NCBI GenBank assembly: GCA_030706025.1
Contig: JAUZPJ010000001.1
Location: 1,122-65,121, forward strand
Direction: 5' to 3'
Length of the DNA: 64,000 nt
Source of the DNA: Bacillota bacterium
Lineage (GTDB): Bacteria > Bacillota > Desulfitobacteriia > Desulfitobacteriales > Desulfitobacteriaceae
Both the position numbers and the translations under genes were made by a program. Each line of letters opens with the position of its first letter. The first letter of the stretch is position 1. Below are positions 4,562 through 62,973 of the stretch, one piece after another. The notes beneath the pieces are model-generated. The model worked only from the letters and a program-made list of their open reading frames with translations. It made no database searches and was not told where the DNA came from.

Positions 4562-5389
4562 TTATATCGCTGAATACTTATCATACATGTTCATTTTGGT
4601 TTGCTCATCGAGCATTGCATATCGTTTAGTTGTGTCTGGTCTTGCGTGTCCCAACTCATCCTGGATAAAACCAAGATCGGCACCATTCTTGTAAAGATTA
4701 GTCGCGAATGTGTGACGCATCACGTGGGGAGTGACCTTTGCCCGTAGACCGGATGCTAAACCCATTTGTTTGACCTGTAGCTCGACAGAGCGTATTGAAA
4801 GCCTCTTGCCATAGCGATTAATAAACAAAGCTGGATTTTCATCGGTCCTGGGGGAAAGATAAGCAATCAGACAGAACTTAGCGATTACCGAGAAATGCAC
4901 GAGACGTTCTTTGTTGCCCTTTCCTCGTACCTTTATTCGACGGAAGTTCATGTCTAGATCATCTCGATTAAGCTGGATCATCTCGCTAATCCTCATTCCG
5001 GAAGAGACCAAGAGCTCGAGGATAGCCTGATTTCGGATACTCTTTTCATGGAATCTCAGGCGGTCGAAATCTTCTTTGGTTAATGCCTTAGGAAGCAAAA
5101 CCGCTTCCTTGGGAGTCTTGATTTTGCGCGTGGGGTTCTTCTCTAGGTACTCTTCATCAACTAACCAAGTGTAAAATGCTTTGACAGTGCTTATTTTCCG
5201 AGCTATTGAGTTTTGAGACATATTCTGAAATTGAAGTAAGTATTGACGCAGGTCGTTTGTTGTAGCTTTAACCGTAGGGATATCAAGGTAATTCGCAAGC
5301 TTAACCAGTTCACGTTTGTATTGATCTAAGGTACCGGGTGCCAGTCCATCCAATTTACGGGCTATTAAAAATTCTATGACGTATTTCAT
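4562..5389 (-). CDS. XerC/D-like tyrosine recombinase (no arm-binding domain)
   Basis: Catalytic motifs SGMRISE, GKGNKER, HVMRH, LGH...TKRY; N-terminal SAM-like domain. Confidence 0.95.
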   Translation of the reverse strand: MKYVIEFLIARKLDGLAPGTLDQYKRELVKLANYLDIPTVKATTNDLRQYLLQFQNMSQNSIARKISTVKAFYTWLVDEEYLEKNPTRKIKTPKEAVLLPKALTKEDFDRLRFHEKSIRNQAILELLVSSGMRISEMIQLNRDDLDMNFRRIKVRGKGNKERLVHFSVIAKFCLIAYLSPRTDENPALFINRYGKRLSIRSVELQVKQMGLASGLRAKVTPHVMRHTFATNLYKNGADLGFIQDELGHARPDTTKRYAMLDEQTKMNMYDKYSAI

Positions 5390-14550: not shown

Positions 14551-17500
14551 ATGGCTTACAACTTAATGGACTATACCAAAAATGATCAATTTAGTAATAA
14601 TAAATATGACCTAATGAAATATGCAAAAGCAAATGAAACCTCATATCCTTCATCTATGGCTGACTTCCGCAAGATTGAAGACACAACACCATTGCCTGAT
14701 ACCCCTCCCGTGAAACAACCTTCTCTATGGGATCAAATAAAGGTTGGAGACATCAAGGGACTGTCGAGTAGAATTCAACCCTTTCACGATGATATGCCTG
14801 ATTCATATTATCAAAATCAAGCTCCACCCATTTCACAATCTGATGCCACTCTTATTCAGCACAATCCTTCTCTATTAGAAACGCTGGGAAATTCCCTGAG
14901 CGGTATCGGTAAGGCTTTTAAATCAGGGGGAGAAAATTCCCCCTTGGTTACCGGTCTTACGAAGGCATTTCTTGGGGATCAATACAATTCAACACCAACA
15001 CCTACTCCATATACCCCACAAAACATTCCTGAAAGTATTGCGTCAGGCATAGGTGAACAGGCGGCAGAATGGCCTTTGTGGATGGCAGGCGGTGCATTAT
15101 CGAAGGGATTAATGGGTGCAGAGAAGGTAGCACCAATAATAAGTAAATTACCAGGCTTAGTACAAACTGGAATTGACGCAGGTTTAACTTATGGTGGAGC
15201 GGTCGCTCCTATGGAAACAGCTTTGCAAGGTGATGGATCACAAGGACTAATAGAGCGTGAAAAACAGGTTCCTGCATTTATGTTAGGAGGCGCGGCATTA
15301 CATGGCGCAGGGCAATTAATAGGCAAAGGTATTGAGGGAGTAGGCAACTACCTTGCTGACCGTAGATTAGGAGAATTAACCCAACCATTAGGTGAAGCAG
15401 TACAGAATCAATTCAATGCTCCTTCTCTCCATGATGTTCAATTAGCTAATCCCATTACGCGCTCAGTTCAACGTAGTGCAGACTTGGGGCCTCTTAGAAT
15501 AAGCGATACTCTTACTCCTGAATACAAAGCAAAGCAAGCTGAGTTAAACGATGTATTTAAAAATAAACCACTCGCTGAACAACCCCTTAATCCGGTTACT
15601 AATACTACATTACAGCAGAACATTGATAACAGTTTAGGTATTGGAAAGTCTACAGAGCAATATCAGGGCTTAGATGTGTTTGGAAAACCTCTTCAAAGTT
15701 ATAAGATCAATAACGATACGCAGAATGCCATTGCTGAGATTTCATCTAAGATGGATCAACAAGTTCAGGATATTGCTTCAAGTCTTAAACAAATGGATAA
15801 TCAAACAAGGGTTGGCAGTATTCGAAATCAAATTAAGGATTTGGGTGGAATATCGCAAGGTAATCCAAATATCTTTGAGGAACAAAAAGTAATTCCAAAT
15901 TGGATTAGAAATAACATTACCGGAAGACCTTTAGATGAGGTAGCGGACACCCTTGGAATGAATTCAGACGAACTATTAGCTGCTATAAGCGATTCTGCAT
16001 ACAAACCAAGGGATTATGTCACCGAGGCCTACAGGATAGCTCACAATGACCCCGAGTATCAAGCATTGAGTAATACGTTGGATACACTAAAGAATGAGTT
16101 ACCCGGGAAGAAAACGCTTCAAGAAGCTATTCCTAAACATGATGGCATTATGACTAAAGCGGATATTAATCTGAAACCAAGAGAACTAACTTCTAAGTCC
16201 GAACAATTGCCAAATGAGCAACTGAAAGGTCTTTCATTATCTGGTAACTTGCCAGTAGATGAACCATTGGCTAGACCCGTGAAGAAATTACAGCCCGTAA
16301 AAAGAGAACCTTTAACTTGGACCAATAGGGATAATATTCCCGTTTCTAATACCGAATCGATTAAGCCGATGCCTGAACAGACGCTGGAAGAAGCTTTAAA
16401 GAGTGGGGATAGTGGGCCGCAAACGATTACTTCGAATGAGACTGTTCCTGCGCCAATTGGAGAACCAAAGCTTGCTACGGAACAACCTTCCATTAACCTC
16501 GCTGATACTAAGATACCCGATACTTCAATTCAACCTTCGGTGGATGATAATACTTTCTGGAACAAGATTAAAAGCGCGTTAGGTTGGAAGGGTAATGTTA
16601 GTGTATTACAAAATGGTATTAAAACAGGTAAGGTAGATATTGGAGAACTTCCAGTAGAAGATCAATCTCGTATTAAGATGAATCTCCAAATGTTTGCAAA
16701 ACCAAATGAATATGTAGATACCAAGCCAATAGATATCAATATTGGAAAAAGTGACAAGCAAACTGCGATTGATACTAGACAGGGGTACGTCGGAAAACTC
16801 AATAAACAAATAGTCACAGGTAATCAGTTAAGAGATACGATGCAACAACTTGCACCAAAGGAACAGGAAGGGATACAACTCTTCCTTGATGCTGGTGGAG
16901 ACATAAATCATCTTAATGAAATGGCCAATAATCCCGATCCTGTGCTGGATAGTTTTATTCCCAATACCAAGACAACGTACATAGAAGCATATAATCAAGC
17001 CCTTAATCTTTCTCCAAATGCTCACAAGGCCGCAGAAATGGCTCAGAAGTATTATGAGGAATCAGGAAAGTATGCCTTAAATACCGGATCAACGAGAAGC
17101 ATCATTGAGAATTATGCTAATCGTATGTGGAAACAAGAACCAAGTGGGAATGTTAAAACAGAGGTTAGGCAACCCGGTCTTAATCCTTTTACATCTCACT
17201 CCAAGCAAAGATTCTATGAGACAATGGGTGAAGGTATTTTAAACGGCAAAGAACCTGCTACACTGAATGCCGGTGATCTACTTAGTATTCACAATCAAGA
17301 AATGGCGAGAGCGAATACAAATAGGGAATTAGCTAAAGCATTAGAATCTAAGGGACTAGGAGTATACCAATTTGAGAAACCAACTCAAGGATTTACTGCA
17401 ATCGATAGCTTAAGCAGGGATATACCAACAATGCACGATGGCAAACCGGCTATAATTCGTCAAAACTTTGTTATTCCTGATGGTATAGCTAAGGGATTGC

Positions 17501-19125
17501 AAGCCATAACTGATCCTAATTATATGGCTAAAGTTGACGCCTTAAGGCATTTGCAAGCATATCAAGGTGTTGTAAAAACTATCGACTTGTCATTTTCCTT
17601 ATTCCATCACATCACACTAGCTGCTGAAGCGTTATATAATTCCAGAGGTGGTTTAGACTTCATTAAAAATTGGGACAAAATGAGCAAACTTGGAAGTGAA
17701 TCCTTTAATGCTGCCGAGAAATGGGGCGCAGAACATGGCTTAATGACCACAAAAATTGATGACAACTATGATATTTTAAGACAATTAGCTGGCAAGGGGA
17801 GTATTATTGACAAGGCGTGGAATTCTGATAATAAACTTGCTAAGGGTGCCGCTGCTATTCCTAAAGGACTTGCTTCATTATCGAATAAAAACTCAGAATT
17901 TTTATTTGGTAAAATTCAAAGATGGCTCAAGGTTATGGACTTCCAAAACAAAGCATCTGAATTCGTGGGAAAGAATCCTAATATGAAAAACGCAGAAGTG
18001 ACAAAGGGATTAAGGCAAATAGCTTCAGAAATCAATGATTCTTATGGTGGTTTGAATTGGAAGGCCATGGGGGTTACTCCAAGCGTTCAAGCCTTGTCTC
18101 GACTTGGATTCTTGGCTCCTGACTGGACGTTTTCTAGCGCAAGAATGCTTGGACGAGCAACCGGTTTAGGAAATATTGAACGTGGGGCCGGTATATTACA
18201 AAATACCAAAAATGTAATTAAGGGTAATCCCGGAAATGCAGCAGCTAGGACAGAATTTGCTGTGGCATTAGTTGGTGGAGCTATTCTTACAGAAGGTCTA
18301 AATAAGATTCTGACGGGTCATTATACGAACCAAAATCCAAAAGGCCATGAGTTGCAAGTGGAGGTTCAACCAGGAGTCTTTATTTCCTTTTTCCGGTCTG
18401 GAATTGGTGATGTTACAAAATGGTCCGCTAATATGCTTACTCAAGGGCCATTAGGTGGTACGATAAATACGATTCAAGGAAAAGGTAGTCCTTTGGTTAG
18501 AACTCTCGTAGGGCAATTAGCGAATAAGCAATTTACTGGTGCTCCCATTACGAATTCAAAAAATACTCCATTGCAGAATGATCTAGCAAGAATAAAGGAG
18601 TTGGCGAGTAGTTTTGCTCCTATGCCTTTTGGCATTTCCGGTACTGCAAGATATCTCAAAAGTGGAGATGCTACGCCATTAGGTACGGGATTAACCGGTA
18701 CTGGTGCTGCAACATATTCGAAAGTTAATCCTTTAAACCCTCTAGCCAATCCTTCGAGTGCTTACGCTGGAAACTGGCTAAATGACTTATTATCTCCTTC
18801 TAGTTCTGCGAGTGATGCTCTTATATCTAAGATTAATGCTCAGAACAAAGCGCAGAACAATCAAACGACACTCATTAAGCAATCTTTAGGAAAAGCGTTA
18901 ACAACAGGTGGATCAACCTCTGATGTTTTTTCCAAATACAATGTTCCGGTAAGTGAAAGGTCGCAACTACTAAAGGATGCCAAGAGTGCCATAGTTGAAA
19001 GTCAGAAATCCCCATTGGTTCAGAAGTTTGATAGTCTAAGCAAGTCGGGACAACAGAAGTTCCTGCAAAGTCTTACTTCAAACGAAAGAGCTACCCTGAT
19101 GCAGGAAAAGCCTAAATTAAAATGA
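14551..19125 (+). CDS. Large DNA ejection / injection protein
   Basis: 1524 aa, last structural gene, Gly/Ala-rich hydrophobic segments; internal KMNLQMFAK motif. Confidence 0.6.
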   Translation: MAYNLMDYTKNDQFSNNKYDLMKYAKANETSYPSSMADFRKIEDTTPLPDTPPVKQPSLWDQIKVGDIKGLSSRIQPFHDDMPDSYYQNQAPPISQSDATLIQHNPSLLETLGNSLSGIGKAFKSGGENSPLVTGLTKAFLGDQYNSTPTPTPYTPQNIPESIASGIGEQAAEWPLWMAGGALSKGLMGAEKVAPIISKLPGLVQTGIDAGLTYGGAVAPMETALQGDGSQGLIEREKQVPAFMLGGAALHGAGQLIGKGIEGVGNYLADRRLGELTQPLGEAVQNQFNAPSLHDVQLANPITRSVQRSADLGPLRISDTLTPEYKAKQAELNDVFKNKPLAEQPLNPVTNTTLQQNIDNSLGIGKSTEQYQGLDVFGKPLQSYKINNDTQNAIAEISSKMDQQVQDIASSLKQMDNQTRVGSIRNQIKDLGGISQGNPNIFEEQKVIPNWIRNNITGRPLDEVADTLGMNSDELLAAISDSAYKPRDYVTEAYRIAHNDPEYQALSNTLDTLKNELPGKKTLQEAIPKHDGIMTKADINLKPRELTSKSEQLPNEQLKGLSLSGNLPVDEPLARPVKKLQPVKREPLTWTNRDNIPVSNTESIKPMPEQTLEEALKSGDSGPQTITSNETVPAPIGEPKLATEQPSINLADTKIPDTSIQPSVDDNTFWNKIKSALGWKGNVSVLQNGIKTGKVDIGELPVEDQSRIKMNLQMFAKPNEYVDTKPIDINIGKSDKQTAIDTRQGYVGKLNKQIVTGNQLRDTMQQLAPKEQEGIQLFLDAGGDINHLNEMANNPDPVLDSFIPNTKTTYIEAYNQALNLSPNAHKAAEMAQKYYEESGKYALNTGSTRSIIENYANRMWKQEPSGNVKTEVRQPGLNPFTSHSKQRFYETMGEGILNGKEPATLNAGDLLSIHNQEMARANTNRELAKALESKGLGVYQFEKPTQGFTAIDSLSRDIPTMHDGKPAIIRQNFVIPDGIAKGLQAITDPNYMAKVDALRHLQAYQGVVKTIDLSFSLFHHITLAAEALYNSRGGLDFIKNWDKMSKLGSESFNAAEKWGAEHGLMTTKIDDNYDILRQLAGKGSIIDKAWNSDNKLAKGAAAIPKGLASLSNKNSEFLFGKIQRWLKVMDFQNKASEFVGKNPNMKNAEVTKGLRQIASEINDSYGGLNWKAMGVTPSVQALSRLGFLAPDWTFSSARMLGRATGLGNIERGAGILQNTKNVIKGNPGNAAARTEFAVALVGGAILTEGLNKILTGHYTNQNPKGHELQVEVQPGVFISFFRSGIGDVTKWSANMLTQGPLGGTINTIQGKGSPLVRTLVGQLANKQFTGAPITNSKNTPLQNDLARIKELASSFAPMPFGISGTARYLKSGDATPLGTGLTGTGAATYSKVNPLNPLANPSSAYAGNWLNDLLSPSSSASDALISKINAQNKAQNNQTTLIKQSLGKALTTGGSTSDVFSKYNVPVSERSQLLKDAKSAIVESQKSPLVQKFDSLSKSGQQKFLQSLTSNERATLMQEKPKLK

Positions 19126-21819: not shown

Positions 21820-22071
21820 TTATTTTATCCTTATAAAGTTATCGAATATTCCGAGCGTAACCGATCCGTTATCTTGAAAGAGTGTTGCAAAATATAAGTC
21901 CGTCACATTCGCTGAAGTTTTTGCAGCGGCATCACCGTAAAAATGTAAGGCATATCCTGTTATATTTGGATTTGAATTAGCCAGGACTACTAAAATAATT
22001 GCGAGTATAATTAAGAACCTTTGTGCTTTCGATAATTCTACTTCTTGTAATTCTTTAATGATTTCGTCCAT
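21820..22071 (-). CDS. Hypothetical membrane protein
   Basis: GAGGT RBS, one TM helix, converges on a terminator at about 21788-21820. Confidence 0.45.
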   Translation of the reverse strand: MDEIIKELQEVELSKAQRFLIILAIILVVLANSNPNITGYALHFYGDAAAKTSANVTDLYFATLFQDNGSVTLGIFDNFIRIK

Positions 22072-24341: not shown

Positions 24342-24992
24342 TCATAGGGCAAGTAGGGGTAATAACTTCAAGGCCATTAACGCCAAACCACCAATGATCA
24401 TTGTATTACCCAACCTTACTGCGTTTGCGGCATCATTCTTGGGAGCTGGAATCTCTACTGGATTTGGTGTTTCATCAGGCAATTCACTGATATTATTCTT
24501 GATAATTTCGAGATATTTTTCAAAGTTATCATTGTTTTTAAAGTGATCAACGATCTCGACTTTAACTTCTTCCTTGATACCATCAACTGTTACTTCTCGT
24601 TTATAACTCAGTGTATCTTTTGGTTGTTTTACGGTTGACTTACTGCTGCCTTTAAACCTATTTCCAAGTTTAGCCGTGATGTACTTTCCAAGATTGTTTC
24701 CTAACATAGCAGCATTAATTTTATATCCTTCTGGTAGGCCAATCACTATTTGTTTATCGGGAACAATTTGACTCCACATTCCCAAACTGTAAGCCCCCAT
24801 TTTAGGATTTGATTCAGAGAAGAATAGAGAGGTTTGGAGAGGGCTATTCGATGGGTAGGGATATAAGTAGTAGAGTTTTGATTCAGAGGCACTAGCAATG
24901 TTTGGCAAGCTGAGACAAGTTCCTACTAATATAAGTAGTATTGAAATTGCAAGAGTGCGCTTGATGGATGATTTGCGGAGGACTAGTAGCAT
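24342..24992 (-). CDS. Exported / membrane-anchored hypothetical protein
   Basis: N-terminal signal peptide and C-terminal hydrophobic helix; last gene of the minus-strand operon. Confidence 0.55.
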   Translation of the reverse strand: MLLVLRKSSIKRTLAISILLILVGTCLSLPNIASASESKLYYLYPYPSNSPLQTSLFFSESNPKMGAYSLGMWSQIVPDKQIVIGLPEGYKINAAMLGNNLGKYITAKLGNRFKGSSKSTVKQPKDTLSYKREVTVDGIKEEVKVEIVDHFKNNDNFEKYLEIIKNNISELPDETPNPVEIPAPKNDAANAVRLGNTMIIGGLALMALKLLPLLAL

Positions 24993-24993
24993 A

Positions 24994-25425
24994 TTATTTG
25001 CCCCCTTTAACTTTCTTTTTTAGATCCTCAATTAACCCATCATGATCTCGTACAGCTTTTTCTAACCAAGGAGCTAGTAAATCTTTTTCATCCTTTGGAA
25101 GTTGTTGAAAAAACTCCGCAAATTTTTCTTTTGCTAATTCTGGGTTACTACGGTAAGGATTTACAAAGAAATAATCTCTCAGATTACCGTTTTCATTAGA
25201 GATTATAATGAATTCAAAAGGTGTCAGGGGATATTTTGTAGGGATTCCGAAAGATGTAAATCCTCCCGTGGTGTCAGGAATTCTAATCTCATAATAAAGC
25301 TTGTTATCCGTAACGATAATATTATTGTTTGAATTACTTGACATCAATGAGATTGGCGAAAGAACCAGCAATGAAGCTAAAAGCAAACCGACAAGTTTAA
25401 CCATCACAGGATTAGCTACTGGCAT
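24994..25425 (-). CDS. Exported hypothetical protein
   Basis: N-terminal signal/TM; GGAGG RBS. Confidence 0.55.
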   Translation of the reverse strand: MPVANPVMVKLVGLLLASLLVLSPISLMSSNSNNNIIVTDNKLYYEIRIPDTTGGFTSFGIPTKYPLTPFEFIIISNENGNLRDYFFVNPYRSNPELAKEKFAEFFQQLPKDEKDLLAPWLEKAVRDHDGLIEDLKKKVKGGK

Positions 25426-25427
25426 AT

Positions 25428-25697
25428 TTATCTTCCTCCTTCAACAATAAAACCAAGTTCAATCAACCTATCTCTAATATTTAGCCTTTCGCAAATGGCG
25501 TCAATCTGTTCCTTAGGTGTAAGCCTCCAACAAAGTTTATTTATCTCAACAAATAAACCATCAATTCTATCTGGATCATTATCGTCGATTTTATCTTCAA
25601 TATTTTGTTCGATGGTTTCTAATTGAGAAGTTAACCATGTGGCAAGTTCGCAAGGGGTTACGTTATATTTATTGAGAATAGCCATGATTTGATCCAT
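25428..25697 (-). CDS. Hypothetical protein
   Basis: GGAGG RBS; operon packing. Confidence 0.5.
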   Translation of the reverse strand: MDQIMAILNKYNVTPCELATWLTSQLETIEQNIEDKIDDNDPDRIDGLFVEINKLCWRLTPKEQIDAICERLNIRDRLIELGFIVEGGR

Positions 25698-25698
25698 A

Positions 25699-26037
25699 TC
25701 AAACCCTCCATTTCAAATACTTCTTAACCTCGATAACAGACATTCTTTTTGTTGCTTTAGCAAGTCTGCTACCCTTCCAGCATCCATAACGGTGAATGGT
25801 TCTCGCTTTGTCCAAATCTTTTATATCGGCGTAATCAAATGTGTTAAGGCAGTCGAAACAATTGTGACCTTTATTCTGATTGCAATAATTTATATCCCAT
25901 CTGCATGATCCACAAATGGATAGCTTATCAGTTTTTAAACAAGAGTGATATTCGCGGCAAATAGGACATTTCACATTATGAATAATCATTTTTGATTCAA
26001 TTTCGGGAGAGATTAAGCTATTTTCCAACAAGATCAA
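25699..26037 (-). CDS. Cys-rich hypothetical protein
   Basis: CPIC, CGSC and CFDC motifs. Confidence 0.5.
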   Translation of the reverse strand: MILLENSLISPEIESKMIIHNVKCPICREYHSCLKTDKLSICGSCRWDINYCNQNKGHNCFDCLNTFDYADIKDLDKARTIHRYGCWKGSRLAKATKRMSVIEVKKYLKWRV

Positions 26038-26043
26038 TCCTCC

Positions 26044-26736
26044 TCATTTCTTCAAATATCCCATCGGATCAATCGTTTTCCCTCCAACTCGAATTTCAAA
26101 ATGCAAGTGCGGACCGGTTGAATTACCTGTATTTCCACTCAAACCTAATTGACTTTTGGAAAATACATGCTGACCTTTAGTAACCGTTACCTTCGATAAG
26201 TGAGCATAAAGAGTTGCCCATTGTCCTCCGTGATCAACCATTACATAGTTCCCATAAACATTATCAGAGTTAATGGCCATTACGGTTCCATCTCTAGCCG
26301 CCTTAACTGTTGTTTCTTCATTACAAGCAATATCTAAGCCGTGATTTTTATCATTATATCCTTGCGTTATTTCCCCTTTGACCGGCCATTCAAAGCGAAT
26401 TGAACTTGGTCTTATTTTTTCCCATAGTGTGATTGATGGGGGATATTTTGATGCACCTGTTCCGACAATAGGGATTGATTCCTTAGCTTCAGGATATGAA
26501 TTAACCGTGTCTGTAACCGATTGAACGCTATCCTTGACTTTTGAATAAGTAACACTTGCATTATGAATATCATCGAATAGTTGAGTTACGCGTGGTCCTA
26601 TTGCAATTAATAAGGTTAGGATCAATGCTGACCAATAGATATATTTAAGTAGGTGTTTTCCAGCAGGAAAAGCCAATTCAACAAAGGTTCGGGTGATTAC
26701 ATACATAAAGGCTAATTGAGCGATCGACTTAATCAT
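26044..26736 (-). CDS. Membrane-anchored M23 (LytM) peptidase
   Basis: HGLDI (HxxxD), YAHL and STGPHLHFEIR; start at 26736 (ATGA overlap) gives two N-terminal TM helices. Confidence 0.9.
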   Translation of the reverse strand: MIKSIAQLAFMYVITRTFVELAFPAGKHLLKYIYWSALILTLLIAIGPRVTQLFDDIHNASVTYSKVKDSVQSVTDTVNSYPEAKESIPIVGTGASKYPPSITLWEKIRPSSIRFEWPVKGEITQGYNDKNHGLDIACNEETTVKAARDGTVMAINSDNVYGNYVMVDHGGQWATLYAHLSKVTVTKGQHVFSKSQLGLSGNTGNSTGPHLHFEIRVGGKTIDPMGYLKK

Positions 26737-26954
26737 TGCCATATCCCCTTTGATGCTTGACCAGCTATTGCCATGAATTTGCTCACATACTGATAACCGA
26801 TCAACGCAAAGGTTACTCCACCAATGAGCCATATTACTTTCATGAAGCGTCCCCCTTGACCTGTGATGTCTGCTATTTGTTGGCATACCCATATGAACCC
26901 TACTAATTTCAGAAGATTAAACATTAGCTTAATGGCAATTTCGGCGGCATCCAT
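26733..26954 (-). CDS. Small two-TM membrane protein (SpoIIIAC/AD-like topology)
   Basis: MDAAEIAIKLMFNLLKLVGFIWV...; AAGGAG RBS; 73 aa. Confidence 0.55.
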   Translation of the reverse strand: MDAAEIAIKLMFNLLKLVGFIWVCQQIADITGQGGRFMKVIWLIGGVTFALIGYQYVSKFMAIAGQASKGIWQ

Positions 26955-26955
26955 T

Positions 26956-27654
26956 TTAGACCAACTCCTTCTGTCTTCGTTCCTCCCTTTTTCTGAGTAC
27001 AATTCGCCAACTGATTTTCTTGAGTTTGTCTAGTTGGTAGAATTCAAGCCTTACATTTTTCATTCCAGATAGTTCTCTGACTAGTTGGTTTTTGAGAGTT
27101 TCGTAAGATCCCGTTGTAACAACCATTAGGTTTAGAATCTGATCTTCGGCAAATGTCTGAAATAACTTCCTGTAATTCTTATTCCACTTGTTTCCAGACT
27201 CAAGGACTTGAAATTCTCCAAAATAGAAGATTTCTCCATATACTTTGTGTTTCATAACTCCGTAATCATCAATAATAGGAAGTGTTTTGTCCTGGTCAAA
27301 GAATTTCCTTTCCTCTGATTTGAAGTAGGTAAGTTCTTGATTATTTTGAGAGTCTAGGGACTTCATATGCCAAGCTGTATAAATCCACGCTTTTCCTAAT
27401 CGATGCTGAATCTGGTCTGGACGTTTCTCGTCGTAGAGATAAAACCAATCTGGTATATCGGACCAGGACATTTTTACTCTGCGGATCAACTTATCTTTCT
27501 CTAGTCTTTGAGTGCAGCGGTGACTCATTTCGGTGCTGACGTTCCAAAACTCAAGCAAATGGATTTGTTCCTGACTTAAGCATTTTAATTGATCGAGATG
27601 AGCCAGAACCCTGAGATCGCGTTTGTGTCCTTGGACGTGGGTAGTTTGGTTCAT
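26956..27654 (-). CDS. Replication-relaxation (Replic_Relax-like) protein
   Basis: N-terminal wHTH (RDLRVLAHL...LSQEQI), conserved His (QIQHRL), degenerate PD-(D/E)xK C-terminus; adjacent to FtsK. Confidence 0.65.
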   Translation of the reverse strand: MNQTTHVQGHKRDLRVLAHLDQLKCLSQEQIHLLEFWNVSTEMSHRCTQRLEKDKLIRRVKMSWSDIPDWFYLYDEKRPDQIQHRLGKAWIYTAWHMKSLDSQNNQELTYFKSEERKFFDQDKTLPIIDDYGVMKHKVYGEIFYFGEFQVLESGNKWNKNYRKLFQTFAEDQILNLMVVTTGSYETLKNQLVRELSGMKNVRLEFYQLDKLKKISWRIVLRKREERRQKELV

Positions 27655-28915
27655 ATTCGTACACCTCGCCTTCGATGTCTGTGTAGGGGAGAGGTATTTT
27701 AGGTAGTTGGGACATAAGTTGATTAAATAACTTTGGATGTTTGTTTTCTGTCGGGAAGTATGGTGTCTGAACCTCTTCCTCAGTATCGTATTTGTATATT
27801 GCCCTGCCTGGTGTTTTGGGTATATATGCTGCTTTGTCGCTTTCGAGAATCATTTGACTGTTAATACGATCTGCCATTCGAAAGGCAATTCTGGCCTCAA
27901 ATTGACTCTTATACTCCGTAAATAAGTTATTGTTTCCCCATGCCTTTGCCGAAGGACGTTGGGTTGCAGAGATACAATAAATTCCCTGTGAACGATATTT
28001 CTTAACTGATTTTAGGAGTAATTCGGCACAATATTTATCCTCTCCAACCATATCAACCTCATCAACAAGTAACACTGCATAGGGCATACTGTTTCCCTTG
28101 ATTGAGTTATACTCCAAGATATCCCTGCATTTTCCGAGTTTGTTTTTGCGCTCCTTGTCTGCCTTGTCGATTAAGAACAGAAGTTTTAGGTAATCAAGTT
28201 CTTCATGAACGAAGGTTGCTCCGTAATCCTCGAAGTATTCAAACTCCTTATTTTTAGGACCTATGATTGCGACTTGAACATAATCCTTTCCAGTGATCTT
28301 ATTGAGTAGTAGCAGGGTGTAAATGATTTGGTGCATGGCGGTTGATTTTCCCTTTCCCCTGAGTCCTACGATGAGCAAGGAATAGATAACGGTCAAGTCC
28401 TGTACGATGGGTCCATTTACACCTTGGCCGATCAGGATAGGAAGTTTCATGGTTTTCAAGTAGGGAGTTGGGTCGAAGGAATAGGAGTATTCTTTTTCAA
28501 GGGAAATGTTTGAAATGGTCATATATACTGCTTCACCATTGCGCTCTATCTCTGCCGATCCACCAACTGCAGTTGCAAAGTGTCCTTCCCTTGACTTGAA
28601 TTCGGAATACTCGATGCCGGGGGGCAGGTGAATCACTAAAAACCAAGTTTGCTTCTTCTTCGGCCTGACTTTAATCCAATGGACAATTTCCTGAGCAGTA
28701 AACTTTTTAGGTAGGTTTGGCTTAAGATTATTTTTCTTTTCCGATGGAGAAAGTAAGGTTTTTTCGAAGATAAATGGTTTCATAGGGTATTTCTTGTAAA
28801 GTATTTCAATGGTATCCCAGACTGCCGATGGTATTTCATCGTCAGGTCCACGGTATAAAGCTCTCATGAAAGTATCTTTGAGGTTATTCACGAATTCATC
28901 ATTTTGTTGCTTCAT
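27551..28915 (-). CDS. FtsK/SpoIIIE-family ATPase
   Basis: Walker A GLRGKGKST, Walker B VLLVDEV, ATQRP and PGRAI motifs. Confidence 0.92.
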   Translation of the reverse strand: MKQQNDEFVNNLKDTFMRALYRGPDDEIPSAVWDTIEILYKKYPMKPFIFEKTLLSPSEKKNNLKPNLPKKFTAQEIVHWIKVRPKKKQTWFLVIHLPPGIEYSEFKSREGHFATAVGGSAEIERNGEAVYMTISNISLEKEYSYSFDPTPYLKTMKLPILIGQGVNGPIVQDLTVIYSLLIVGLRGKGKSTAMHQIIYTLLLLNKITGKDYVQVAIIGPKNKEFEYFEDYGATFVHEELDYLKLLFLIDKADKERKNKLGKCRDILEYNSIKGNSMPYAVLLVDEVDMVGEDKYCAELLLKSVKKYRSQGIYCISATQRPSAKAWGNNNLFTEYKSQFEARIAFRMADRINSQMILESDKAAYIPKTPGRAIYKYDTEEEVQTPYFPTENKHPKLFNQLMSQLPKIPLPYTDIEGEVYEYEPNYPRPRTQTRSQGSGSSRSIKMLKSGTNPFA

Positions 28916-29094
28916 GTGTTTTTTGGTATCACTCCTTTCTCTTTCAACTTAAGTCGGATACCATCACGAATTAAATCTGATAGTTCACCTTGTTCGAGTT
29001 TCTTTTTTGGTCTTTGTTCTGCGAGTTGTTTTAATCCCTGCCTTATGTCGCGGTCCAAACGGCTCCTGAGTCTTACGCGAAGATCATTTTGCAA
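28912..29094 (-). CDS. RHH protein heading the FtsK operon
   Basis: LRVRLR...ELSDLIRDGIR; AAGGAGG RBS. Confidence 0.65.
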   Translation of the reverse strand: MQNDLRVRLRSRLDRDIRQGLKQLAEQRPKKKLEQGELSDLIRDGIRLKLKEKGVIPKNT

Positions 29095-29319
29095 GTTTTA
29101 CCCTCCTTTTGTGGTTAGATTGTGGAACAAATTTTCTGTTAAATTTTGCGGAGCTATAAAACTCCGCACAAAATTTTGTCCGATAGAAAGGGTATAATTG
29201 AATCCTAGAGTCGAATTATTTGATTACTATGGGTGACTCTGTGATAGATAATATTAACGATAATTAATAAAAATGCACGTACAAAAAATAAAAATAAATT
29301 AAAAAAGACCTGACTTTTT

Positions 29320-29505
29320 TTAGTCAGGCCAGAGGTATTCTATAGGATAAACGAGTGCTTTTGAAATTTTCTTTGCTGTCTCAAGATTTATGGATTTTCT
29401 CTCATTGACAATACGACTTAATGTAGTCTGGGATATACCTGTCATATGTGATAATTCTTCCTGAGTTATCCCTCTCCTTTTCATAATTTCCTTGATTCTA
29501 TTCAA
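29320..29505 (-). CDS. XRE-family HTH regulator
   Basis: NRIKEIMKRRGITQEELSHMTGISQTTLSRI; likely TTG start at 29505. Confidence 0.85.
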   Translation of the reverse strand: MNRIKEIMKRRGITQEELSHMTGISQTTLSRIVNERKSINLETAKKISKALVYPIEYLWPD

Positions 29506-29527
29506 TTTTTCATCACCGAGGAAATTA

Positions 29528-29655
29528 TTTCCACGCAAATTTCGTAATTCCTTCTGACAAAAAACGAGTAAAAATACTGCCAATACTAAGTTAATATTAC
29601 CTTTCGTTAATATAATTTTTTTCGTCAATATGCCTAATTTTTTGCGATTTCGACA
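29528..29655 (-). promoter_or_regulatory. Sigma-H-like promoter and two Spo0A boxes
   Basis: Minus strand GAAGGAATT-N11-GTGGAAA (29554-29528); TGNCGAA at 29621-29627 and 29649-29655. Confidence 0.45.
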
Positions 29656-29958
29656 CGTGATATATAATATACTTCACGTAACGAAATTAATTACAATAAA
29701 GGACTAAAGACCTATTGTAAAATAGGAAATTATTCCTATGGGTAGCAAGCGAAGGAGATGAATTGACCCACTAAAGACAGAATATCATAACGTATATTAC
29801 TATTGAGGGATCATATGCACAAAGAAAGGAAGTCCGAATCCAGGGCATTGAGCTTCGGACTTCCCCTACAGAAAACAACCTCCGAAAAGGTGTCTTGTCA
29901 GCTTCATTTTACATCATTGGATACCTTTCGGCAAGGTATGAAAGAAGGTTTAAGGTAA

Positions 29959-30210
29959 ATGTTTAACCTTATGATTACCTTAAGGACAGCAAGGGAATTG
30001 AATGGTTACACAATTGAAGAAGTCGCAGAGTTTTGCGATTTAACCATTGGGGAATATGAAGAAATTGAAAAAGATCCAAGTAACTTCTCACTAAGAATAA
30101 TCTCTACCATAGCAAACCTATATGGGGTATCATTGAAATACATCTATGCTGGAACTGAAAATGATTGTGTTTCGCACAATAAATCACGCAAAATTGGAAA
30201 CGATGTTTGA
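29959..30210 (+). CDS. XRE-family HTH protein
   Basis: ITLRTARELNGYTIEEVAE...EKDPS. Confidence 0.8.
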   Translation: MFNLMITLRTARELNGYTIEEVAEFCDLTIGEYEEIEKDPSNFSLRIISTIANLYGVSLKYIYAGTENDCVSHNKSRKIGNDV

Positions 30211-30452
30211 CCACAGAATGACCACATAATGACCACGCAACCAAGTAAATATTACGATATTTCGTTAAGTATGTTACACCTTCATATTTAAAATTATCAC
30301 ATTTCATGCACACTTATCGCATATAATAAAAGATGTTACACGAAATTTCGTAATAATAACCTCATGGGCGGCATGATGTAACGTTGACCAAAAAGGTAGA
30401 CGTACCAATGGTTAGACGCTATGATGTTGCGCATTGACCACTTTTTGACCAC
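30208..30452. other. attP: core ATGGGCGGCATGATGTAA (30364-30381, groEL 3' end) with TGACCAC arm sites
   Basis: Core encodes MGGMM*; TGACCAC at 30208, 30219, 30230, 30435 and 30446; directly downstream of the integrase. Confidence 0.85.
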
Positions 30453-30467
30453 ATAAAGAAGATATTT

Positions 30468-31646
30468 TTAGAGGTTTCTCATGAGTTCGCTGAACTTTTG
30501 AGAAGCCTCTTTTTTCATTGTCTTTGTTACGTGCAAGTATACCCTTCTGGTTATTTCATCGTCAGAGTGTCCTAACCTTTCCATAATTTCTTCTAGGCCA
30601 ACTCTTGCTTCAGCTAATAACGATGTATGGGTGTGTCTTAATGAGTGGGGAGTTAAGTTTGTATTTAGTCCTGCAAGTTTAAGCAATCTATTCATTCGAT
30701 TTTCGATCTTCTTGATATATATTGGATAACCATAATTCTTTTCGGTCATAGAAAATATAAAATCTTTATCGTGGTAAACTTTCCTGTGTTCCATTTTTAC
30801 AATCTTTTGGCGAGATTGGTGTAATTCTAGTTCGGCTAAGACAATAGCATCTATTTCTATTATCCGAATGGAACTCTTTGTCTTCGGGGGTAGTAATTGA
30901 TATTTTCTGATGTTGTTTTTCGGATTGTAATAAGTTTTAGTGATACTTATTGTCTGGTTCTCGAAATCAATATCTTTCCATTTCAAAGCACATAATTCTC
31001 CGGCCCTCATACCGGTATAAGCTAAAGTAAGGAAAATTATATAGTCCATTTCAAATCCATTTTCTTTTGCCATTTTTAAAAATGAAGATAGTTCATCTTT
31101 TTCAAGATATTCTGGCACTTCTGTCTCGGATTCTATTTCATCAACTGTTTTTTGGGTTCTAGGTATTATTGCGTATTGAGTAGGATCTACTTTTATATAA
31201 CCCAATTCAACGGCCTTTTTAAAGATCATTCTTCCAGTACAATGAATACCTTCAAGCGTAGTGTGTGCAAGCCCTTTATCTTTAAGGTCATTCAAAGCGG
31301 ATTGATATAACTTTCGGGTAATATTTTTCATCTTATATTTTGCGAAGTAAGCTAAGAGTCTCCCTGACTCATGCTCCCTAACCCTTACGGTACTTACTTT
31401 AACTCTTCCTGTTGCTTGGTATAATCCGAGCCATTCTCCTTTAAAATCTTCAAAAGTTATTTCTGCTTCTTTCACATAGGTACCCTGGTCTAACTCATTC
31501 ATTAGCACGGCTGCAGCAAGCTGTGCTTCTTTTTTTGTCTTAAATCCCCCCTTGCTTCGCTGGTCCCTATCTCCTGTATCTGGTTTTATTCCTACGTCAA
31601 TTGTGTAGTACCACGTTTTGCCACGTTTTCTGTAATATCCCTTCAT
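30468..31646 (-). CDS. int: Phage integrase (tyrosine recombinase with arm-binding domain)
   Basis: GFKTKKEA arm domain; TGMRAGEL, HSLRHTH, RLGH...VYLH. Confidence 0.96.
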   Translation of the reverse strand: MKGYYRKRGKTWYYTIDVGIKPDTGDRDQRSKGGFKTKKEAQLAAAVLMNELDQGTYVKEAEITFEDFKGEWLGLYQATGRVKVSTVRVREHESGRLLAYFAKYKMKNITRKLYQSALNDLKDKGLAHTTLEGIHCTGRMIFKKAVELGYIKVDPTQYAIIPRTQKTVDEIESETEVPEYLEKDELSSFLKMAKENGFEMDYIIFLTLAYTGMRAGELCALKWKDIDFENQTISITKTYYNPKNNIRKYQLLPPKTKSSIRIIEIDAIVLAELELHQSRQKIVKMEHRKVYHDKDFIFSMTEKNYGYPIYIKKIENRMNRLLKLAGLNTNLTPHSLRHTHTSLLAEARVGLEEIMERLGHSDDEITRRVYLHVTKTMKKEASQKFSELMRNL

Positions 31647-52193: not shown

Positions 52194-53087
52194 TTATTTA
52201 TTATCATTTGGTAAGGGTATGAACTCCCCGACTCGTTTGTTAGTCGGATGGGCGTAAATTGAGGTTGTTTTCAACGACTTATGACCCATATACCAAGACA
52301 CATCCCGAATATCTGCTTTTTGGTCTAGTGCCGTAGTCGCAAAGCTATGTCTCAGAAAATGAGGGGTAGCTTTTTTATTTATTCCTGCTTTCTTAACTCC
52401 GCTCTCGATCCATGTCCTAAGTGTAACGCTTGAAGCTCGTTTTTTGCTTGGGTTTAAAAAGATCGGGGAGTTATCCTGGGGATTAATTTCTTTACCGACG
52501 AAGTTTTTAATTATTTCCCAGACATCCTCCCTTAGTGGTAAAAGTTGATATTCGCCGCCTTTTCTATGGACATTTATGCAAATCGAATTATCAGGCATCT
52601 CAACAAAACTTGACCAACTCAATTCCCATATTTCGGATATCCTCATTCCTGTAGCTACAAGGAGAAGGCCGAGAACATAATGCTTTTCATTCGTTTCCTT
52701 AAGAGCCCTTAATAATTTATCAATTTCCTTCACGGTCAAAAAACGTTCTGCGCTGCGATTTGGGGCCGCCTTTTGTTTCACTACCGCAAAAGGATTTCCT
52801 GTAATTAAGCCGCATTTCATGGCGAAGTCATAGAACTTTTTCAAAGTGGATATTTGACGTTGTGTTGTTGCTTCAGCTTTATTCGATTTCAGGAATTCGC
52901 TGTATTTCAAGGCATCAAAAGGAGTTATCTCACGATATGGCTTGTTTATCCAAGATAGAAAGTATTTTATTGTACTGTGGTAGGTCCTAGATGTTCCAGG
53001 GCTTTCTTGGTTTTTGACAAAGTATTCAACGACTTTGGAAGTTGGCATGATAGCCAGTTTTTGTGATTCCACCGCTAATTCATGCAT
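52194..53087 (-). CDS. XerD-like tyrosine recombinase
   Basis: TGMRISE, RKGG, HFLRHSFAT, MGH..TTSIY. Confidence 0.95.
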   Translation of the reverse strand: MHELAVESQKLAIMPTSKVVEYFVKNQESPGTSRTYHSTIKYFLSWINKPYREITPFDALKYSEFLKSNKAEATTQRQISTLKKFYDFAMKCGLITGNPFAVVKQKAAPNRSAERFLTVKEIDKLLRALKETNEKHYVLGLLLVATGMRISEIWELSWSSFVEMPDNSICINVHRKGGEYQLLPLREDVWEIIKNFVGKEINPQDNSPIFLNPSKKRASSVTLRTWIESGVKKAGINKKATPHFLRHSFATTALDQKADIRDVSWYMGHKSLKTTSIYAHPTNKRVGEFIPLPNDNK

Positions 53088-62520: not shown

Positions 62521-62973
62521 GTGGAAAAATATATTGGAACAAAGATTATCGAGGCAGAACCTATAAATCTCGGTGACTACAACAAATCAAGAGGATGGAC
62601 AATTCCAGAGAATGAAGATCCATTAAGAGAGGGATATAGAGTAATTTATCCTGATGGTTACGTCAGTTGGTCACCAAAAGAAATCTTCGAAGAGGCTTAT
62701 CGCAAAACTGATGGATTAACCTTCGGTCTTGCCGTGGAAGCCTTAAGAAAGGGGAAAAAATTAGAACGTACCGGATGGAATGGCAAAGGAATGTTCGTTT
62801 ATTATGTTCCTCCTGCTTGCTATGATACACAAACAGAAGTAGCTAAAAAAGAATTCGGACATAAAGCACTTTATAACGCCTATCTAGCGATAAAAAATTT
62901 AAACGGAACAGTTAGCACATGGGTTCCATCAATCAATGATGTTCTAGCAGGAGATTGGCGCATAGTCGAATAA
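62521..62973 (+). CDS. DUF2829 / Tad2-like anti-defence sponge fused to an N-terminal domain
   Basis: C-half TFGLAVEALRKG..RTGWNGKGMF...WVPSINDVLAGDW matches the Tad2 signature. Confidence 0.8.
   Translation: MEKYIGTKIIEAEPINLGDYNKSRGWTIPENEDPLREGYRVIYPDGYVSWSPKEIFEEAYRKTDGLTFGLAVEALRKGKKLERTGWNGKGMFVYYVPPACYDTQTEVAKKEFGHKALYNAYLAIKNLNGTVSTWVPSINDVLAGDWRIVE

Follow-up and report, generated by a model that had tools for sequence, protein, structure and literature searches.

Operon of a temperate phage

We analysed a 64,000-nucleotide stretch of DNA, called the window below, from the assembly of a Bacillota bacterium of the Desulfitobacteriaceae (GCA_030706025.1, contig JAUZPJ010000001.1, positions 1,122 to 65,121). 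The window represents most of a 67,685-base contig, placed in a 3.19-Mb genome bin that is 80% complete and that carries spoIIIAA-AF on a different contig. Its genes include those for a terminase, a portal, tail proteins, a holin, an amidase, an integrase and a repressor: the element is a temperate tailed phage, whose contig was assigned to a spoIIIA-bearing Bacillota by binning. Between its lysis block and its integrase, a placement also seen in Bacillus phages 268TH007 and BtCS33, lies a minus-strand operon of nine open reading frames (ORFs; 24342..29094), as described in an earlier reading made from the letters of the window alone (the sequence-only reading); its intergenic gaps are −104 to +6 nt. 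This operon, its ATPase, its nuclease and above all its two small membrane hairpins are the subject of this report.

The ATPase gene (27551..28915, minus strand as for all operon genes below) encodes 454 amino acids (aa). Its assignment to the FtsK/SpoIIIE family was borne out by PF01580 (E 4.6e-7, 30 bits over cut-off 24), by phrog_1358 (E 4.8e-40), and by intact Walker A/B and TQRPS motifs. The protein has no N-terminal transmembrane (TM) segment or other membrane anchor, and scored 40.5 bits out of the 1566 required with NF007615, so that it is not a full-length orthologue of the chromosomal FtsK/SpoIIIE. Matches to the TraB, EssC and FtsK models were weak and below cut-off.

The next gene (26956..27654) encodes a 232-aa protein that we read as a Replic_Relax (MobC-like) winged helix-turn-helix (HTH) with a PD-(D/E)XK nuclease, which the sequence-only reading had called replication-relaxation-like. 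The protein itself has no Pfam match, and 11 of 14 aligned relatives match Replic_Relax (PF13814). Residues H84, D129, E147 and K159 are invariant across relatives, D129 and E147 belonging to a D..E-x-D/Q core. The predicted model (predicted local distance difference test, pLDDT, 73) fits PD-(D/E)XK nucleases, best of all the nickase N.BspD6I (2ewf; Z 9.0, root-mean-square deviation 3.4, 128 residues aligned). A Foldseek search of this model against the PDB returned nothing at E 0.001, and the top match in a viral structure library was a protein of Bacillus phage JL. The nuclease profile gathered 403 clusters at E 1e-10. By these comparisons the protein is probably a divergent Replic_Relax member, and a predicted relaxase or nickase.

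Downstream lie a two-TM protein of 73 aa (hairpin 1, 26733..26954) and a protein of ∼230 aa in which a second two-TM hairpin (hairpin 2) is fused to an M23/LytM domain (26044..26736). Conservation was followed in IMG/VR, where 80 loci were kept of 240 found, many of them near-duplicates from few samples. The FtsK gene adjoins the nuclease gene in 51 of the 80, and among these 46 have a profile-scored hairpin and 19 the M23 fusion, which gives as a core an optional small leader gene, FtsK, the nuclease, hairpin 1 and hairpin 2 with or without M23. The idea of one operon therefore holds for the tight coupling of the genes, and the conserved unit is smaller than the nine ORFs: o112, o89 and o143, described in the last section, are not conserved parts of the module.

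SpoIIIAC-like hairpin families

The families of hairpins 1 and 2 resemble each other (hhalign 92%). In a Pfam-wide scan of 52 hairpin segments (62 extracted, minus 14 near-duplicates and apparent non-hairpins, plus 4 others), SpoIIIAC was the most recurrent family (9/52, best score 20.2 bits for a cut-off of 24) and Spore_III_AE was found in 3/52. SpoIIIAC was also the best non-phage match of both hairpin profiles among 12,414 host ORFs (E 0.015 and 0.04). When the profile of the M23-fused hairpin 2 was run blind on 61 whole genomes, four prophage matches were followed by 20 consecutive spoIIIAC genes (E 1.6e-5 to 5e-3), and spoIIIAC occupied 29 of the 44 non-phage places; it made up 20 of the 31 non-phage matches of the hairpin-1 profile. 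The reverse search used a hidden Markov model (HMM) built from host SpoIIIAC only, on 16,045 ORFs: after SpoIIIAC itself, the next eight matches were module hairpins (best E 4.8e-4). A hairpin that had not been used in training (locus L184) scored 26.2 bits with this host-only HMM and 11.8 bits with the Pfam model. Finally, alignment of hairpin 2 with SpoIIIAC gave an hhalign value of 91% and a score of 33.5; the highest of 25 column shuffles reached 12.9, and the reversed profile 17.8. Reciprocal profile homology with SpoIIIAC spans the whole of hairpin 2, and is weaker for hairpin 1. Taken together, the host and reciprocal profile searches indicate that hairpin 2 is probably a remote homologue of SpoIIIAC, and hairpin 1 possibly one, both sitting in a phage module outside the spoIIIAA-AH operon.

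The N-terminus of the M23 protein had been likened by eye to SpoIIIAF. This likeness was not supported: hhalign gave 13%, 78 of 300 shuffles scored equally high, the C-terminal domain is M23, and the hairpin is closer to SpoIIIAC. For the 73-aa protein, the ESM Atlas yielded leads below 0.8 only (TcpD, 0.75), and no solved structure was found for host SpoIIIAD or for the hairpin profiles.

The M23 domain itself is clear (PF01551, E 2.8e-32), confirming the description of this product as a two-TM M23 peptidase-like protein. In the window copy the HxH motif is present and the first zinc-ligand His is replaced by Asn (NHGLD), HHGxD being kept in 18 of 21 sequences. The SpoIIQ of B. subtilis also lacks one zinc ligand, according to passages of PMC12720343. 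A relationship to SpoIIQ itself was not upheld: the SpoIIQ model NF053738 gave 68.6 of the 250 bits required and ranked seventh among the NCBIfam M23 models, and the anchor in the window has two helices. The basic loops of the hairpins suggest that both ends of each hairpin face outward, in which case the M23 domain would lie outside.

Promoter-like motifs upstream of the module

The −10 element of sigma-E promoters is CATA. The pattern ATA-N15-17-CATA was present 20-120 bases 5′ of the module leader in 15 of 58 loci, or 11 of 40 clusters. Control leaders contained it in 24 of 529 cases overall and in 16 of 308 when AT-rich (p 4e-5 for 11/40 clusters against 16/308). The ATA/CATA pair ranked top among the 3-mer/4-mer pairs tested, and its excess lay at spacings of 15-17. 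The leader of the host spoIIIAA gene contains CATACCTT, and the same is found in loci L080, L084 and L118. By this count a sigma-E-like promoter motif is over-represented in the leaders of the relatives; the leader of the window is without it. In C. difficile, passages of PMC3789822 give ATA as the −35 element of sigma-E promoters and describe spoIIIA as sigma-E-driven.

Distribution of the module

Most phage records matching the FtsK protein are Bacillus phages (178 of 209, Salasmaviridae and Herelleviridae included), and another ATPase search gave 257 Bacillus phage records among 361 matches; in 52 records of Mycobacterium phages the match is limited to the ATPase core. When a sporulating order (spoIIIAE in 150/151) was compared with a non-sporulating one (spoIIIAE in 0/152), the nuclease family turned up in 28 of 151 genomes of the former, with 25 of 29 loci adjoining FtsK, and in 0 of 152 of the latter. 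In a draw of 401 genomes across the phylum, 23 had a match to the nuclease profile; FtsK was adjacent in 8, all of them spoIIIAE+.

A possible role in sporulation

The likeness to SpoIIIAC, together with the sigma-E-like leaders of the relatives, suggests a function in the sporulating mother cell. Our best reading, which we hold tentatively and would place somewhat short of probable, is that the module works as a pump tied to sporulation, by which phage DNA is brought into the forespore. Phage DNA nicked by the Replic_Relax nuclease would be pumped by the membrane-less FtsK ATPase. Anchorage of this pump at the mother-cell/forespore membranes would be provided by the two SpoIIIAC-like hairpins and the M23 domain, and the dormant spore would thereby receive a copy of the phage. 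The benefit would be greatest for extrachromosomal phage copies, those of newly infecting, induced or lytic phages, whose carry-over by the host SpoIIIE would be unreliable. Expression of the module in the mother cell, contacts of the hairpins with FtsK and with SpoIIIA, and the direction and substrate of transport are what we infer in this scheme. As to its origin, it is possible, if rather doubtful, that phages of spore-forming Clostridia-like hosts captured SpoIIIAC and placed it, with a relaxase and an FtsK pump, behind a sigma-E promoter, and that the products plug into the sporulation complex to inject the phage genome into the forespore, as a viral device dedicated to spore entry and akin to conjugation.

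Phage FtsK/SpoIIIE genes are present in hundreds of Bacillus phage records, and the module may bear on how phage genomes come to be trapped in spores. DNA of phage CP-51 is trapped in spores (passages of PMC4113786), and CP-51 encodes an ATPase plus this nuclease. PMC10294663 lists a phage spoIIIE and proposes spore entrapment in general terms, with no "spoIIIA" in the main text. The SpoIIIAC likeness and the sigma-E-like promoters would be the earliest indication that phages have taken over a component of the SpoIIIA-SpoIIQ apparatus, and would bear on the function of SpoIIIAC and on whether DNA can pass through this apparatus. In our literature searches, which did not extend to subscription journals, no publication connected phage FtsK modules with SpoIIIAC. 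General background was taken from parts of PMC2703783, PMC7924749 and PMC12651245.

An alternative that draws on the same SpoIIIAC likeness and sigma-E motifs is sabotage of sporulation. SpoIIIAC mimics would then poison or rewire SpoIIIA-SpoIIQ while the nuclease and the pump damage or divert host DNA, leaving the host usable for lytic growth or excluding competitors. The restriction-type fold of the nuclease and the variable exported genes that trail the core agree with such a role. The relaxase-family nuclease nevertheless stays beside the pump in 25 of 29 loci, and host spores benefit a temperate phage, which makes this alternative appear improbable.

Several results weigh against a pump built on SpoIIIAC-like parts. 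Concerning the hairpins, none reached a curated cut-off (the best Pfam score is that given above, and TIGR02848 gave 15 of 56.65 bits), and neither hairpin is a SpoIIIAC/AD member by curated score. The hairpins of the window matched neither PF06686 nor TIGR02848 nor any other family, and as single sequences did not align significantly with host SpoIIIAC, SpoIIIAD or SpoIIIAF (11-242 of 300 shuffles equally high). The hairpin-1 profile placed five membrane proteins of ∼300 aa above spoIIIAC (hhalign 92% versus 67%), and the three of these that were inspected are NrfD/PsrC-like by sequence and neighbours. DUF485 also recurred, in 6 of the 52 segments of the Pfam-wide scan. The proposed resemblance of the small TM protein to SpoIIIAC/AD is thus retained at the level of family profiles, where hairpin 1 also matches the NrfD-type rival; it is not significant for the window sequence alone and stays below the curated cut-offs.

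Concerning the promoters, the leader of the window has no sigma-E-like motif between −120 and −20, and the motif was found in 0 of 9 Bacillus-type loci. The ATA-N15-17-CATA pattern was chosen after viewing the sequences, and the leaders were assigned automatically, with some errors. A weighted promoter score showed an excess in the tail only (9/53 versus 10/253) and no overall shift (p 0.27). Concerning the parts, no SpoIIIAA-, SpoIIIAG- or SpoIIIAH-like component is encoded in the module. Bacillus-type hairpins did not match SpoIIIAC (hhalign 10%), and in one Bacillales subgroup (L209, L235, L237, L239-L242) the nuclease is followed by a gene resembling VirB2 pilins of type IV secretion systems (T4SS), with Pfam matches below cut-off in 6 of 7. 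Passages of PMC4113786 describe the FtsK of phage Fah as a delayed gene in ordinary infection.

Concerning host range, the two-order contrast compares one lineage with one other, using a nuclease profile trained on phages of spore-formers, and the phylum draw was not significant (7 module genomes besides our own, for a background of 326/401; 0.81^7=0.23). Parts of the module also occur in phages of hosts recorded as non-sporulating: a hairpin and FtsK in LIS04 (Listeria), FtsK and the nuclease in SpaA1 (Staphylococcus) and TS-12 (Stenotrophomonas). The match coordinates in SpaA1 are identical to those in Bacillus phage BceA1. An association with spore-formers, a property to be expected of a sporulation device, is seen in the two-order sample, is not significant in the phylum draw, and has exceptions in these three phages.

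The usual annotation of phage FtsK/SpoIIIE genes, proposed in passages of PMC11526630, is segregation. According to it, FtsK and the nuclease would act at the septum of vegetative division, segregating or resolving phage DNA that is outside the chromosome, with the hairpins as a generic anchor. The timing of the Fah FtsK fits, as do the adjacency of the module to ParA in one relative (L003) and the appearance of the contig, whose mid-contig integrase suggests an unintegrated phage. Such a role would leave the M23 domain and the sigma-E motifs superfluous, and would have to account for a module present alike in integrase-bearing phages and in lytic Salasmaviridae and Herelleviridae, and for a nuclease family absent from the sampled non-sporulating order (0/152). 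We consider intracellular maintenance quite unlikely.

Comparison with known systems

A core of FtsK, a Replic_Relax/MobC-like nuclease and a membrane anchor is an already known phage module; what is new here are the SpoIIIAC-like hairpin families. FtsK and Replic_Relax pairs in phages, cited in the sequence-only reading, do have a precedent: the DNA translocation operon of phage 0305phi8-36 (orf200-207; Pathria et al. 2012) combines a MobC-like relaxase with a translocase lacking TM domains and with anchor proteins, and is non-essential, being dispensable for plaque growth (passages of PMC3357382). With this operon and with the FtsK and replication-relaxation pairs of DLc1, 268TH007, BtCS33, GBSV1 and PK2, the window shares a MobC/Replic_Relax-type nuclease, a TM-less translocase next to it, membrane proteins encoded separately, and a frequent location between lysis genes and integrase. 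It differs in that its translocase is of FtsK type, with SpoIIIAC-like hairpins downstream and the M23 fusion, whereas 0305phi8-36 has a VirD4/AAA_10-like ATPase with VirB6- and MreB-like genes; in Bacillus-type modules, the hairpin is upstream and has no SpoIIIAC match. The searched passages of PMC3357382 make no mention of sporulation or SpoIII. Attempts to link the Bacillus-type or pilin-like hairpins to hairpins 1 and 2 or to SpoIIIAC failed. Among lytic Herelleviridae, TsarBomba (L178) and P59 (L183) have two-TM, polytopic and long FtsK genes, and in CP-51 (L176) a large ATPase and the nuclease adjoin a sigma factor.

With the SpoIIIAA-AH/SpoIIQ apparatus, the module has in common two-TM hairpins that can be aligned with SpoIIIAC (PF06686) over their full length, a membrane-anchored M23/LytM domain, degenerate in the window copy, and, in its relatives, sigma-E-like promoters. 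The phage hairpins are however under the family cut-offs, and the module contains no AA ATPase, AB, AE or ring-building AF/AG/AH. SpoIIQ has one TM segment and is made in the forespore, and no DNA transport is known for the host SpoIIIA-SpoIIQ complex.

The membrane part varies by lineage, being SpoIIIAC-like, Bacillus-type or pilin-like, so that by comparison of its relatives the module looks like a stripped conjugation unit. Relaxase and coupling-ATPase logic, already put forward in the sequence-only reading, holds at family level, given the PF13814 relatives, the nuclease fold and the 0305phi8-36 operon. Could the phage genome then be moved, without virions, to neighbouring or chained cells, as in the spreading of Streptomyces TraB-Spd plasmids? 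The components would be a MOBC-like relaxase, a TcpA/TraB-like pump, pilin-like membrane subunits and a wall hydrolase. Like MOBC systems (CloDF13 MobC, PF13814) and TcpA-type conjugation, the module has a PD-(D/E)XK relaxase-like protein beside an ATPase pump, and pilin-like genes in some relatives, as in 6 of the 7 hairpins of the Bacillales subgroup. A leader peptide is found in many relatives of hairpin 1, and in some it looks cleavable. When the hairpin families were tested for VirB2/TrbC, a TrbC match (E 0.015) was obtained in 1 of 28, and none in the phage copies of the own genome. VirB6-like and relaxase genes are reported for 0305phi8-36 (passages of PMC3357382), and the M23 motif is intact in most sequences. 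No mating-pair apparatus was found, and no VirB4-, VirB6- or VirB8-like gene was seen in the window's module. Neither was a conserved origin of transfer (oriT) seen in repeats of 28900-30500 or in k-mer counts, except for a GGACAAA word within some promoters. The nuclease of the second module copy of the bin (L032) had no match among PLSDB plasmids, the pilin-like set aligned with hairpins 1 and 2 at hhalign ≤1%, and cell-to-cell transfer leaves the sigma-E motifs and the SpoIIIAC likeness unexplained.

TraB transports DNA in double-stranded form and is not known to need a relaxase. The TraB-Spd system of pSVH1 shares with the window an FtsK-like pump acting with small membrane and wall-binding proteins to move element DNA within a cell community, and TraB and Spd cross walls (PMC4447253); it is a plasmid system, not a phage one, and the window FtsK scored 24.6 of 800 bits with the TraB model NF041214. 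On balance we hold cell-to-cell transfer to be unlikely.

In the host genome, the sole match of the TrbC/VirB2 model was the N-terminal hairpin of SpoIIIAF (G000:C335:12010-12138, E 0.2), a faint hint of a likeness between pilins and SpoIIIA.

A role linked to the virion, as an aid to DNA injection or packaging, has also to be considered. An injection role was proposed for a gene of phage Pony (passages of PMC3853050), and the module adjoins lysis or packaging genes in several phages. The window module is transcribed opposite to the structural genes of a phage that has its own terminase and portal, and 0305phi8-36 forms plaques without its operon; we regard this role as very improbable.

Accessory genes and other features of the contig

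The operon begins with a gene for a small basic protein of 60 aa (28912..29094, TTG start), a putative ribbon-helix-helix (RHH) regulator or relaxosome accessory. Homologues were found by tblastn 5′ of FtsK in many relatives, and this is the first gene of the module in one clade. A small leader ORF is thus present as first described; the RHH fold is a by-eye label, the protein having no Pfam, family or PDB match. Farther 5′, an XRE-family HTH gene (29320..29514, minus strand; PF01381, E 1.7e-16), often directly 5′ of the module, is parted from the operon by a terminator-like hairpin at 29307-29330. Control by Spo0A was considered and rejected: two boxes lie 5′ of the XRE gene, but the window contains 36 for 27.8 expected, with no enrichment before modules. 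Neither sigma-H nor sigma-70 promoters were enriched before modules.

At the other end of the operon, o112 (25699..26037) is a Cys-rich ORF of 112 aa with a GC content of 35%, and o89 (25428..25697) an acidic ORF of 89 aa with a GC content of 34%. Neither has a homologue in the fetched loci, and o112 is likely an insert outside the conserved module. The 143-aa o143 (24994..25425) has no family match; its signal/TM leader weakly resembles those of genes after the nuclease in a few relatives (E 0.007 to L014, 22 bits to L106). The last gene, o216 (24342..24992; 216 aa, N-terminal signal/TM and C-terminal TM), is the module end in one clade and trails the module in six distinct relatives. It had no family or ESM Atlas match, and its predicted model is unreliable (predicted template-modelling score, pTM, 0.29).

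The integrase sits mid-contig, beside short direct repeats, and for this reason the contig may be an unintegrated form of the phage. The TGACCACA repeats at 30207-30232 and 30434-30459 bracket a non-coding stretch adjoining the integrase; with phage genes on either side, this stretch looks like an intact phage attachment site (attP) and is a candidate for it. As the contig is possibly unintegrated, the phage is tied to its host by binning, by the presence of a second module in the bin, and by modules found in genomes of the same genus. This second, divergent copy (G000:C445; L032, 89-2643) encodes an FtsK 34% identical to that of the window, both hairpins and an intact M23. The closest full relative, L024 (CAYGDX010000005.1, FtsK 80%), is a 64-kb contig of a metagenome-assembled genome titled Gammaproteobacteria, and probably a mis-binned phage.

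Elsewhere in the window, a 1524-aa ORF (14551-19125) without Pfam or PHROG match lies in the virion gene block. The features at 62521-62973, 4562-5389 and 52194-53087 comprise a gene for a Tad2-like anti-defence protein (E 1.8e-22) and two tyrosine recombinases that are distinct from the main integrase. Finally, a one-TM gene of 83-94 aa is found near the module in the window (21820-22071), and by eye a similar gene lies directly 3′ of o216 in L001-L003.

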